A model generated the notes under the pieces. That model had not been told where the DNA came from. It ran no database searches and worked only from the letters and a program-made list of their open reading frames with translations. Below are positions 38,637 through 41,842 of a DNA stretch of 64,000 bases, piece after piece; within the stretch, counting starts at the first letter, position 1; the number at the start of each line of letters is the position of its first letter. Source of the DNA: Gammaproteobacteria bacterium (GTDB taxonomy: Bacteria; Pseudomonadota; Gammaproteobacteria; Enterobacterales; Neiellaceae); contig JAFOOX010000053.1 in the NCBI GenBank assembly GCA_017425245.1, forward strand, positions 84,349-148,348, read 5' to 3'. Both the position numbers and the translations under genes were made by a program.

Positions 38637-39983
38637 ATGCATCTCACCATACAGTTACATCACGGCGGCAAGTGGCAGGACGCAGCAACAATTGCTGTGC
38701 CCTTTCCGGAGCGCGGGCGGCAGGGACCGATGCGCCTCGGCTATCTGCAGGAGCATGCCCTGGAGTGGATGTTTCGCGATGATGAGCACGCTTGCAGCAT
38801 GCGTTTGCCGGTCGAGCTGATGCTCAACCACAGCAGTAGCGCGTGGTTTGCCTTTATTGACGACATCATGCCGGCTGGTGCCGCGCGCCGGTATTGGCTG
38901 CAGGCGCTGGGGTTGGTGGATAAACCCTCTGGCCTGCAGGATTGGGAGCTGTTGCGGCGGGGAACCATCGCGCCTGTGGGGAACATGCGCATCAAAGAAG
39001 CTGTGCCCACCTTGCCCGTCGGCAGCAACCTGCCGCAGCGGCGTTTTACCATCGCCGAGGTTGTGGAGCGGCAGGGCGACTTTCTTGAATATGCGCAGCA
39101 GTTGGGGGCCCTGAGCGGCGGCGCAACCGGGGCCGGTGGCGAGGCACCCAAGTTGTTGTTGCGCTGCACAGCCGATCACCACGTGTGGATCGATCCCTTC
39201 CAGGATGATGATGTCTGTGATGATCGCCATTACTTGGTGAAGTTTCCGCGTGGCCAGCGTAGCGCCATCGACTGCGACATCCTGCGCGCCGAGTTTCACT
39301 ATTACCAAGAGCTGGCGGCACTGGGCATCGACACCATTGCTACAGCGGGGATGCAGTTGCATGAAGGCAGCCGCTATCCATCGTTGTGGTTGCCACGTTT
39401 TGATGTTGAGTGGCAGCAGGGCCGGTTGCTGAGACACGGGCTCGAATCGATCTATGCGGTGCTGGGTAAAGCCCCCGGTAGTCACCTTAACCACTTCACC
39501 ACGCTGCGTTTGTTGGTGGCGATGCTGGGGCGACAGTGGCGTGTCAGTGAAAACGGTGAACGCTTTGATCAGCAACGCTTCATCAGCAGCTGGCTACAGC
39601 GCGACTTGCTCAACATCATCTTTGGCAATAGCGACAACCATGGACGCAACTGCGCCTTGCTCAAGAAGCCTTCCGGGATTTGGCTGGCGCCAGTCTATGA
39701 CTTTGCGCCGATGAAGGCGGATCCTGAGGGGATCATTCGCAGCAGCCAATGGGGGGCGCCGTTCGAAGAGGGCGGGGAGTATCGCTGGCGGTCAATTACT
39801 GCCGAGCTGGCAGACATCGCTGATAGCGAGCGCCTGTGGCTGGACCTTCAGGGGTTGGCGAGCCAGCTGATCGGGCTGCCTCAGCGCTTGGCTGAGCGCG
39901 GTGTACCGCAGCAGATCCTTGATTTCCCTGCCATTGGATTGGCCGCCACCGAAGCCAAACTGCAACGCTGGGGGTTGCTATGA
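38637..39983 (+). CDS. HipA-family serine/threonine kinase (toxin-like)
   Basis: 448 aa, similar in size to HipA. It has a HipA-like N-terminal domain, a P-loop-like SGGATGAGGEAPKLL, and a catalytic-loop-like GNSDNHGRN (compare GNTDDHLKN of HipA). Confidence 0.65.
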   Translation: MHLTIQLHHGGKWQDAATIAVPFPERGRQGPMRLGYLQEHALEWMFRDDEHACSMRLPVELMLNHSSSAWFAFIDDIMPAGAARRYWLQALGLVDKPSGLQDWELLRRGTIAPVGNMRIKEAVPTLPVGSNLPQRRFTIAEVVERQGDFLEYAQQLGALSGGATGAGGEAPKLLLRCTADHHVWIDPFQDDDVCDDRHYLVKFPRGQRSAIDCDILRAEFHYYQELAALGIDTIATAGMQLHEGSRYPSLWLPRFDVEWQQGRLLRHGLESIYAVLGKAPGSHLNHFTTLRLLVAMLGRQWRVSENGERFDQQRFISSWLQRDLLNIIFGNSDNHGRNCALLKKPSGIWLAPVYDFAPMKADPEGIIRSSQWGAPFEEGGEYRWRSITAELADIADSERLWLDLQGLASQLIGLPQRLAERGVPQQILDFPAIGLAATEAKLQRWGLL

Positions 39984-40318
39984 GGGCGCTGACGCCAGAG
40001 CAACGGCAGGCGTTACTGCTGCAGTTGCTGCAGCAATTGCTGACCGGCGCGATCCACGAAGGCGAGTTGCTACGCACACTGCGCAAAAAGGTGCTGGGGA
40101 TGTCGCAACAGGAATATGCCAATTTGGTGGGTATCAGCCGCCGCAGTTTGTCGGATCTGGAGCGCAATACTGCCAGCCCCAGCATCGCCTTGTTGGCGCG
40201 GGTGTTCAAGCCGCTGGGGTTGAAGCCTGCTCTGCTGCCACGTAGCCCGCATCTGCTGGCGCAACTGCTGAACCCTTCGGCATTGGCAGACCCGATTGGT
40301 GGCCCTTCCGCTGACTGA
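39980..40318 (+). CDS. XRE-family helix-turn-helix protein (HipB-like putative antitoxin/regulator)
   Basis: HTH_3-type segment MSQQEYANLVGISRRSLSDLERNTASPSIALLARVF. The ATGA overlap with the hipA-like stop indicates translational coupling. Confidence 0.7.
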   Translation: MRALTPEQRQALLLQLLQQLLTGAIHEGELLRTLRKKVLGMSQQEYANLVGISRRSLSDLERNTASPSIALLARVFKPLGLKPALLPRSPHLLAQLLNPSALADPIGGPSAD

Positions 40319-40402
40319 GCCAGGCCGCAGCCGCTACCCTTCGACCCTGCTCAGGGTAAGCGGCGGGCGCAGGCCTTCGCCTTGCAACTTGCCCCTTGTC
40401 AC

Positions 40403-40469
40403 TCGCTTCACCTATCTTGTTCGCATCTCGCATCTCGCATCTCGCATCTCGCATCTCGCATCTCGCATC
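40403..40469 (+). repeat. Leader element cgcttcacctatcttgt followed by 7 perfect tandem TCGCATC heptamers (40421-40469), ending 24 bp upstream of the MBL-gene ATG
   Basis: Seven consecutive tcgcatc units read directly from the sequence. It is related to 38541-38567 and to the reverse complement of 7221-7261. Confidence 0.9.
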
Positions 40470-40492
40470 AACCACAGGACGTGGAGGCATAC

Positions 40493-41842
40493 ATGGAGTT
40501 GGTTCATCACGGCGCTGCCTATGGGGTTACCGGCTCTTGCCATGAAGTGGTGGTGGCGCCGGGGCTGTCGCTACTGGTTGATTGCGGCCTGCGCCAGGGG
40601 CGTGATGCGCCAGCAGGGCAGGGGGCGGATGACCGCCTCGGTTTTGATGCCAGCGGGGTGCGAGCGCTGATTGTTACCCATGTTCATATCGACCATGTGG
40701 GCCGTATTCCCGCGCTGCTGGCCAGCGGGTTCACTGGCCCCATCTTTGCTACGCCTGCCTCGGTGCTGTTGCTGCCTCTGACCCTGGAGGATGCCAGCAG
40801 CCTGCGCTCTAACCCCTGTGCCGATCTTGACCTGCGACTGCGCCGCCAGTTGGTGGCGGTGCCTTATGGCCAGTGGCAGCCACTGCCCGCTGGTTTGGGC
40901 CAGCTGCGCTTTCAGCATGCTGGCCATATTCTCGGCTCGGCGTTGGCTGAACTGGATCTGCCGAACGGCGAGCGCTGGGTCTTTTCCGGTGATCTCGGTG
41001 CGCCCGACACGCCGCTGCTGCCAGATCCGGCCAGCCCGCAGCGGGCCGATCTGCTGGTGATCGAAAGTACTTATGGCGATCGCAGCCATCAGGGGCGGGC
41101 CGAGCGCGGTGAACGGCTGCGTCAGATCATTGAGCGTACCCTGCGCGATGGCGGCACCACCCTGATCCCGGCCTTTGCCATTGGCCGCACTCAGGAGCTG
41201 CTCTATGAGTTTGAGCAGATCCTCCATCAGTTTCGTGGCAGCCCGCTGTGGCGCGAGCTGCCGATCATCGTTGATTCGCCGCTGGCGGCCCGCTTCACCC
41301 GCCATTACCGCCGATTGGCGGCGCTGTGGGATGAGGAAGCGCGGCAGCGGCTGCAGGCCGGGCGTCACCCACTGTCATTTACTGAACTGGTCACCATCGA
41401 CGACCACCGCGACCATCTGGCACTGGTTAACCGGCTGGCCCAAAGCGGCGAGCCAGCGGTGGTGATTGCTGGCTCTGGCATGTGTAACGGTGGCCGCATC
41501 ATGAACTACCTCAAGGCGCTGCTGGGCGACGCGCGTACCGATCTGCTGTTTGTCGGCTATCAGGCCGATGGCACGCCCGGCCGCATGATCGCTGATGCCG
41601 AGCCGGGCCAACGGTTGTGGCTGGATGGCGCCGAGATCTGCCTGGCGGCGCAGGTGCATCAGCTGTCGGGCTTCTCGGCCCATGCCGACCAGGATGATCT
41701 GCTGCGCTTTGTCCGCCAGATGGGCTCGCCACCCAAGGCGGTGCGGGTGGTGCATGGTGAGCCACAGGTGCAACAGGCCTTCGCCCGCCAGTTACGTCAG
41801 CTGCCTGGGGTGGGCGTAGTGAGCTGTGGGAGTGATGGCTGA
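40493..41842 (+). CDS. MBL-fold metallo-hydrolase of the beta-CASP type (RNase J/CPSF-like putative nuclease)
   Basis: HxHxDH motif (VTHVHIDHVGRIP), downstream Asp/His motifs consistent with beta-CASP, and a C-terminal RNA-metabolising MBL region. RBS GGAGG at 40483-40487. Confidence 0.7.
   Translation: MELVHHGAAYGVTGSCHEVVVAPGLSLLVDCGLRQGRDAPAGQGADDRLGFDASGVRALIVTHVHIDHVGRIPALLASGFTGPIFATPASVLLLPLTLEDASSLRSNPCADLDLRLRRQLVAVPYGQWQPLPAGLGQLRFQHAGHILGSALAELDLPNGERWVFSGDLGAPDTPLLPDPASPQRADLLVIESTYGDRSHQGRAERGERLRQIIERTLRDGGTTLIPAFAIGRTQELLYEFEQILHQFRGSPLWRELPIIVDSPLAARFTRHYRRLAALWDEEARQRLQAGRHPLSFTELVTIDDHRDHLALVNRLAQSGEPAVVIAGSGMCNGGRIMNYLKALLGDARTDLLFVGYQADGTPGRMIADAEPGQRLWLDGAEICLAAQVHQLSGFSAHADQDDLLRFVRQMGSPPKAVRVVHGEPQVQQAFARQLRQLPGVGVVSCGSDG

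Follow-up and report, generated by a model that had tools for sequence, protein, structure and literature searches.

We analysed a 64-kb stretch of DNA (hereafter the window) from a metagenome-assembled genome labelled 'Gammaproteobacteria bacterium' at NCBI, and conclude that its segment 38568-40318 is very probably a self-contained two-gene toxin-antitoxin (TA) cassette of the hipAB type II kind with a reversed gene order, to which the ribonuclease (RNase) gene that follows it is unrelated. The first gene of the pair (38637-39983, forward strand) encodes a HipA-family serine/threonine kinase of 448 aa, the putative toxin, and the second (39980-40318, forward strand) a protein of 112 aa with an XRE-type helix-turn-helix (HTH), predicted to be a HipB-like antitoxin and autorepressor. 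NCBI annotates the four genes of the locus (MBQ1784387-90) as a HipA family toxin (MBQ1784387.1), an HTH regulator, a metallo-beta-lactamase (MBL) fold metallo-hydrolase and a DUF86 protein. An initial annotation, made from the letters of the window, had united the kinase, the HTH protein and the beta-CASP MBL nuclease encoded next to them in a possible three-gene TA or defence module. The kinase and its downstream HTH partner were borne out, while the module of three genes was not. The conclusion draws on the domain content, the fold, the catalytic residues, the coupling of the two genes, the conservation of the operators, the lack of co-occurrence with the RNase and the polymorphism among strains, all of them results of this analysis.

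The kinase is a genuine Ser/Thr kinase of the HipA family, as initially supposed: over residues 166-370 it matches the Pfam model HipA_C with 72.2 bits against a cut-off of 30.5. Among the other Pfam models proposed for checking the locus, HTH_3, Lactamase_B and Beta-Casp were found in their respective proteins, whereas Couple_hipA was undetected in the window kinase and only faint in its homologues. The AlphaFold 2 model of the kinase, built on an alignment of 27 homologues, has a mean predicted local distance difference test score of 85.6 and a predicted template modeling (TM) score of 0.87. Compared by Foldseek with the full-length HipA structures of Escherichia coli and Shewanella oneidensis (3dnu, 3dnt, 4pu4), it gives TM scores of 0.63-0.73 with an E-value of 1e-13, in alignments of about 470-490 columns; weaker matches are HipT (E about 1e-6) and CtkA. 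On this model the protein is predicted to have the fold of full-length HipA, N-subdomain-1 included, which sets it apart from HipT and the short kinases.

The residues expected of an active kinase are preserved. The Gly-rich loop G161-GATGAGGEAPK172, K202, E219, the catalytic D333, H335 and N338 and the Mg-binding D355 are invariant among 23-27 homologues with identities down to 39%. The initial annotation had regarded the catalytic loop GNSDNHGRN as divergent from that of HipA. This motif is indeed present, at residues 330-338, but it keeps the D-x-H-x-x-N pattern, and, because the hidden Markov model (HMM) alignment places it on GNADAHGKN of the S. oneidensis HipA (and PVYDFAP of the window kinase on PWYDLVS), the loop is a normal variant with no functional divergence. 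T164, an invariant residue, aligns by eye with the Ser in the FSLAGAQPK-type loops of clade-I HipA and may therefore be considered a candidate autophosphorylation site.

The relation between the two genes was examined in 80 genome loci with kinases 52-65% identical to that of the window, 6 kb being taken on each side and searched with the HTH, nuclease, HepT and MntA proteins of the window. An HTH homologue is encoded directly downstream of the kinase gene in every one of these loci, which agrees with the reversed, translationally coupled arrangement initially described. The HTH protein of the window itself matches HTH_3 with an E-value of 2.6e-10. Its ATG overlaps the TGA of hipA as ATGA at 39980-39983, exactly where the overlap had been reported, and a four-nucleotide overlap of this kind is found in 70 of the 80 loci (ATGA in 61, TTGA in five and GTGA in four), the gap in the remaining loci being at most 36 nt. 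The codons for the Arg-Trp-Gly-Leu end of the kinase (CGCTGGGGGTTGCTATGA, 39962-39983) are invariant and place a GGGGG run 7-11 nt before the HTH start codon. The conserved C-terminus of the kinase, with its Trp-Gly codons TGGGG, may thus double as a Shine-Dalgarno-like ribosome-binding site of the antitoxin gene.

The region upstream of hipA contains two 18-nt palindromes 41 bp apart. The distal one, TGAGCAAAATCTTGCTCA (38568-38585, forward strand), agrees with TGAGCA-N6-TGCTCA with no mismatches, and the proximal one, TGAGCATTATTTTTCTCA (38609-38626, forward strand), with one mismatch, 11 nt upstream of the hipA ATG. When this motif was sought in the family loci within 200 nt upstream of hipA, with up to two mismatches allowed, at least one site was present in all 80 loci and three sites in 49 of them, against a background of 0.019 sites per 200 nt elsewhere in the same loci; in 107 of the 118 pairs of neighbouring sites the spacing is 41-42 bp. 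At up to one mismatch, the motif occurs in the whole window just at the two sites upstream of hipA, so that no family operator precedes the nuclease gene. The distal operator overlaps a -35-like TTGCTC (38579-38584), and 17 nt after the latter there is a -10-like hexamer TAGCCT (38602-38607, forward strand), which would complete the promoter. In 62 of the 80 loci a -10-like hexamer (at least four of six matches to TATAAT) begins 7-9 nt upstream of the proximal site, compared with 6% of control segments. A scan with the generic sigma-70 consensus gave no promoter upstream of either hipA or the RNase gene in the window, and the promoter proposed for hipA is drawn from the comparison within the family. 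Judged by its layout, the hipA upstream region looks like a classical autorepressed TA promoter.

As to the distribution of the pair, the kinase family numbers 1,393 matches at E<=1e-3 and is frequent among Halomonadaceae, Aeromonadaceae and Enterobacterales. Plasmids too have the two genes in this arrangement (135 plasmid records, with identities down to 39%), among them plasmids of Acinetobacter, Agrobacterium and Rahnella; five viral contigs of IMG/VR also carry the kinase, none of them CN-32. The 294 proteins neighbouring the kinase loci fall into 187 clusters, and synteny is confined to genera. The cassette is mobile, occurring in unrelated contexts across genera and on plasmids. Exact direct repeats of 14 nt or longer were found within 500 bp of the pair in just eight of the 80 loci, with unrelated sequences, and the family thus shares no att-like cassette ends.

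Within the organism's own lineage the pair is polymorphic. Three metagenomic contigs, L004-L006, belong to a close relative and are 88.5% identical to the window in nucleotide sequence over 5.3 kb. They contain the genes for the nuclease, HepT, MntA and a cadherin-like protein in the same order and lack hipA-HTH: the 3' end of manC and one REP-like (repetitive extragenic palindromic) element are followed by heptamer repeats and the nuclease gene, with no counterpart of the window positions 38309-40450. By blastn, positions 490-901 of L004 correspond to 37895-38308 of the window and positions 918-6252 to 40451-45794. Four other contigs (L091, L092, L096, L097) have hipA-HTH at 96-100% identity between the same flanks as in the window, with varying heptamer counts and, in one of them, a different left-hand gene. 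Because it is absent from the former contigs and present with the same flanks in the latter, hipA-HTH is a strain-variable segment of 2.1 kb (38309-40450, forward strand). The segment lies at the right border of the polysaccharide locus, which is low in GC; a manC remnant at this border is a trace of an earlier recombination.

The leader which the initial annotation had described before both hipA and the nuclease gene does exist. Two copies of a 31-nt direct repeat, 90% identical to each other, are located at 38536-38566 (ACTAGCTTCACCTATCTTTCTCGCATCTCGC) and 40401-40431 (ACTCGCTTCACCTATCTTGTTCGCATCTCGC), both on the forward strand, and a 27-nt pattern derived from them has two matches in the 64 kb, with none expected. 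The left copy ends in about 1.7 units of the heptamer TCGCATC, and at the right one there are exactly seven (40421-40469, forward strand; Tandem Repeats Finder score 98, 100% matches), which form a part of the RNase gene leader. It is, however, no evidence that the two genes are co-regulated: the repeat flanks the strain-variable segment, and the operators are found at hipA alone. The most plausible reading of the 'shared leader' is that it belongs to the nuclease gene and has been partly duplicated on both sides of the inserted hipA-HTH segment. Since the left repeat abuts the distal operator and thus occupies the position held by the third operator in most relatives, the left end of the cassette appears to be truncated at this repeat. 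The single leader copy of the relative has diverged (CCTTGCTTCGTCGAGG, then heptamers), so the indel is not a simple deletion between the two 31-nt repeats. The TCGCATC tract before the RNase gene varies among strains, with 2, 7 and 14 units in complete tracts (for instance, L004 923-936 and L091 2246-2343) and at least 3-4 units in those at contig ends.

These features suggest the following mode of action. The free HipA kinase would phosphorylate an essential translation factor and bring growth to a stop. In characterised HipA and HipT kinases the target is an aminoacyl-tRNA synthetase. The downstream HipB-like XRE-HTH protein would bind the kinase and neutralise it and, alone or in the complex, should repress the operon through the phased operators overlapping the -35 region and the transcription start, with translational coupling tying the synthesis of HipB to that of HipA. 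The cassette is likely to have been inserted ahead of the beta-CASP RNase gene, into its heptamer-bearing leader, which is partly duplicated on both sides. Most likely, the cassette acts as a selfish or stabilising element at a locus border prone to recombination.

The kinase-first order itself is already known. Gerdes, Baerentsen and Brodersen (2021, PMC8262856) distinguished reversed hipAB subclades (clades VI and VII) and hipEB (HipE, clade IX), rare modules amounting to 8 and 12 of 1,239, none of which had been analysed experimentally. Like these, the window kinase is full-length with N-subdomain-1 and has a putative HTH antitoxin of the HipB type encoded behind it; unlike the 20 modules listed there, the family to which it belongs is far larger, given its 1,393 matches and 135 plasmid records. 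The closest studied counterpart is the HipAB pair of genomic island GI21 of Shewanella putrefaciens CN-32 (Sputcn32_2916/2915; Front Microbiol 2022, PMC8978831), in which a HipA of 448 aa, barely alignable with that of E. coli, precedes an XRE-type HipB. The CN-32 kinase is toxic in E. coli and neutralised by HipB, the promoter is repressed 2-3 fold by HipB as well as by HipAB, and the pair stabilises the island (PMC8978831). The primers published for it encode M-EQLTIQA... and ...RWGLV* and include a GTATGA junction, and the window family conserves an x-LTIQ start and an RWGL[LVI] end. Because its length, termini and gene junction match, the CN-32 HipA is very likely, though not proven, to be an experimentally validated member of the window family. 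A metagenome scan with the forward primer for CN-32 hipA gave six chance matches in unrelated genes. The two pairs share the reversed order, a 448-aa kinase remote from E. coli HipA, an XRE-HTH gene next to it and a position in mobile or variable DNA. They differ in that HipB of CN-32 has 152 aa with a C-terminal HTH and that of the window 112 aa with a central one, and in that the former pair lies within an integrase-bearing island, whereas the latter is situated at the border of a polysaccharide locus without an integrase.

With the canonical HipBA of E. coli K-12 and S. oneidensis the window pair has in common the fold, the D-x-H-x-x-N motif, the Mg-binding Asp, the XRE-HTH partner, multiple phased palindromic operators in the promoter and a Ser/Thr next to the Gly-rich loop (T164 in the window). 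In contrast to it, the gene order is reversed, the operator is TGAGCA-N6-TGCTCA, the kinases are only 13-18% identical, and the pair has no Couple_hipA match and stays below the NCBIfam equivalog cut-offs for the toxin and the antitoxin. As for HipBST of E. coli O127 and Legionella pneumophila, it likewise contains a kinase of the HipA superfamily and, being a Hip system of three genes, is the nearest precedent for the initial idea of a three-gene module. However, HipT has no N-subdomain of its own and relies for it on the separate HipS, while the window kinase is full-length with its 448 aa; no hipS-like open reading frame is present at the window locus, where the third gene encodes an unrelated, non-co-occurring RNase.

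It is against this background that the other explanations should be weighed. The hipA, HTH and beta-CASP nuclease genes might make up one three-gene TA or defence module co-regulated through the shared leader, as they are located on the same strand with short gaps, neither an intrinsic terminator nor a stable structure separates the nuclease gene from the HTH gene, hipA and the nuclease gene are each preceded by the 31-nt element, and a HepT/MntA pair is adjacent. We consider this extremely improbable. In none of the 80 hipA-HTH loci is a beta-CASP gene (nor, for that matter, a HepT or MntA homologue) found within 6 kb of the kinase; the homologues of the nuclease elsewhere have other neighbours; L004-L006 possess the nuclease, HepT/MntA and the cadherin-like gene and no hipA-HTH; and the family operator is missing upstream of the nuclease gene. 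The nuclease is, moreover, a close homologue of the stand-alone RNase TTHA0252 of Thermus thermophilus, with which it aligns over its full length (1-433 against 1-412, E 1.3e-79). As for the defence flavour that had been attributed to the block, in the comparison with PADLOC-DB 2.0 the kinase and the nuclease gave no significant matches, and the HTH protein matched generic HTH models alone. A further reading would link the RNase to the cassette in some strains only. The 31-nt element with the hypervariable TCGCATC tract could act as a hot spot of recombination or insertion, at which hipAB was captured, and it could also give the RNase gene a leader subject to phase variation; with no terminator separating the HTH and RNase genes, the expression of the RNase might become coupled to the autoregulated TA promoter in those strains that harbor the cassette. 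This proposal seems very unlikely to us, but, if true, it would mean a strain-specific functional link of a HipA kinase module with an RNase.

Two further alternatives accept the pair as such and assign it another role. It could serve primarily as an anti-phage abortive-infection system, in which infection frees the kinase and translation shuts down; the mechanism would then be the same and only the role would differ. Phage defence is a function of many type II TA modules, such a role has been proposed for several Hip families (PMC8262856), and the cassette, which varies between strains, has another TA pair beside it at a border prone to recombination. We nevertheless regard this as rather unlikely, considering that the best PADLOC match of the kinase is not significant (PDC-M03A, E 2.4e-4, 18.5 bits), the surroundings are not recognisable as a defence island, the family is found on just five IMG/VR viral contigs, and the only likely studied relative, that of CN-32, was shown to stabilise a genomic island, not to act in defence (PMC8978831). 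The kinase and the HTH protein might, on the other hand, be a non-toxic signalling pair, with the kinase regulating the transcription factor or another process, as was proposed for YjjJ/HipH, a protein which PMC9948734 ties to cell division and metabolism. YjjJ is in fact the best NCBIfam similarity of the window kinase, and the identity of 55-66% across orders would suit such a function. This possibility is very unlikely in view of the patchy mobile distribution of the pair, with its unrelated contexts, plasmids and presence or absence in strains, of the tight translational coupling and autoregulatory-type operators typical of TA loci, and of the toxicity of the probable CN-32 homologue and its neutralisation by the HTH partner (PMC8978831).

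Several points nevertheless weigh against our conclusion that the locus is an autonomous hipAB-type TA cassette. Toxicity, neutralisation, DNA binding and the target of the kinase are what we infer, not what we observed. The kinase differs greatly in sequence from the HipA proteins of solved structure (13-18% identity; phmmer E 0.005; profile E 3.5e-5), its best NCBIfam similarity, to YjjJ (PRK09775), scores 37.3 against a cut-off of 401 and so stays below equivalog level, and the HTH protein likewise falls short of the equivalog TIGR03070 (couple_hipB), with 36.2 against 71.65. The kinase family is unusually conserved for a toxin, its members sharing 55-66% identity across orders. The membership of the CN-32 HipA in it is deduced from length, termini and junction, not from a full alignment. 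In the window, two of the usual three operators are present, and the -10-like TAGCCT is weak (three of six matches). Finally, neither a terminator nor any unusual structure (z +1.35) was found in the spacer between the HTH and RNase genes, and transcription from the TA promoter may read through into the RNase gene.

As to the neighbours of the cassette, the gene downstream of it (40493-41842, forward strand) encodes a beta-CASP MBL ribonuclease of 449 aa and belongs to the backbone. The Lactamase_B (112.8 bits), Beta-Casp (62.2 bits) and RMMBL (41.3 bits) domains are all present, as is HVHIDH, which represents the HxHxDH motif, so the initial identification of this protein stands; the spacing of 175 bp given for it is in fact 174 nt, counted from the HTH stop to the ATG at 40493, which lies behind GGAGG and was called as the start in related contigs too. 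An assignment of the nuclease to Cas14 was rejected, its score being 325 bits against a cut-off of 800. The nuclease family is about 55% identical across many Gammaproteobacteria and occurs there beside other genes; we regard the protein as a separate, broadly conserved backbone RNase of the housekeeping type. Directly downstream, on the reverse strand, are the overlapping genes of the HepT/MntA pair whose adjacency had been pointed out initially: HepT (41848-42198/42204) with the Pfam HepT-like domain (91.5 bits) and MntA (42201-42491 or 42617) with NTP_transf_2 and Polbeta. Their scores against the NCBIfam equivalogs, 46 and 33, are below the cut-off of 60. This pair is also a part of the backbone, being present in strains without hipAB, and neither it nor the RNase gene has a demonstrable functional link to hipAB. 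Next to HepT/MntA in all related contigs there is a gene for a secreted cadherin-like/Big_9 protein (42681-45788), of 1035 aa in the window and about 1010 aa in the relatives.

Repeats near the cassette had been mentioned initially as well, and they are there: two units of about 155 bp in tandem upstream of hipA (38242-38530) consist of REP-like repeats. The dispersed palindromic element CCCCACTTTGTAAAAGGGGGGCG...AAAATCCCCCTGTATCCCCCTTTGCCAAAGGGGGAG has more copies at 7757-7959, and one partial copy occurs in the relative without hipAB. The contig L096 is 100% identical to the window from position 38481 onward, its AT-rich positions 1-693 being unrelated to the window; it is probably a chimera joined at the REP element during assembly. 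The TCGCATC tract is the point at which several metagenomic contigs break off. A further tract of this heptamer lies at 7225-7259 on the reverse strand, just downstream of lpdA and beside its terminator hairpin, with no associated indel evident in comparison with L106. The search of the leaders against Rfam gave just sub-threshold matches to miRNA models, on the REP hairpin.

The wider window is composed of several blocks. After a polysaccharide export gene (10149-12920) there comes a cluster of the polysaccharide/O-antigen type (13000-38236) with a GC content of 41-50% against 60-65%. It holds an IS630 transposase gene (32209-33318) and rmlD/A/C/B (34400-37869) and ends in a truncated manC remnant (37715-38236) with the C-terminal domain alone; related strains differ in their genes there. 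In Aeromonadaceae (L001/L002 from Zobellella taiwanensis and L011/L016 from Oceanimonas and Zobellella), the hipA-HTH pair is found between htpG and a capsule/rml polysaccharide cluster and likewise borders a variable polysaccharide locus, with an adjacent IS605-family OrfB/TnpB gene in one strain. To the right, the synteny with L004 and L094 ends at 46573. The next 11 kb or so (46574-57783) are occupied by an operon-like array on the reverse strand, which encodes a DUF2170 protein (56795-57451), PspA/IM30 (56086-56781), two proteins of uncharacterised type, of 231 aa (55387-56082) and 691 aa (53245-55320), a 1761-aa protein with DUF3686, DUF7902 and an AAA ATPase (47861-53146), a rhomboid protease (47286-47864) and a phospholipase D-like nuclease weakly similar to DrmC/MkoB (46588-47274). 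No PADLOC system was matched by this array.

In general, the comparison of many loci averts a false lead here: the kinase-HTH-nuclease 'defence module' is a chance juxtaposition, arisen from a mobile TA cassette inserting before a housekeeping-type RNase gene. The family of reversed-order HipA-HipB pairs is large, and the published surveys list far fewer modules of this type. Its conserved promoter design, with up to three operators 41-42 bp apart and a -10 box abutting the proximal site, offers a ready-made test for HipB binding.

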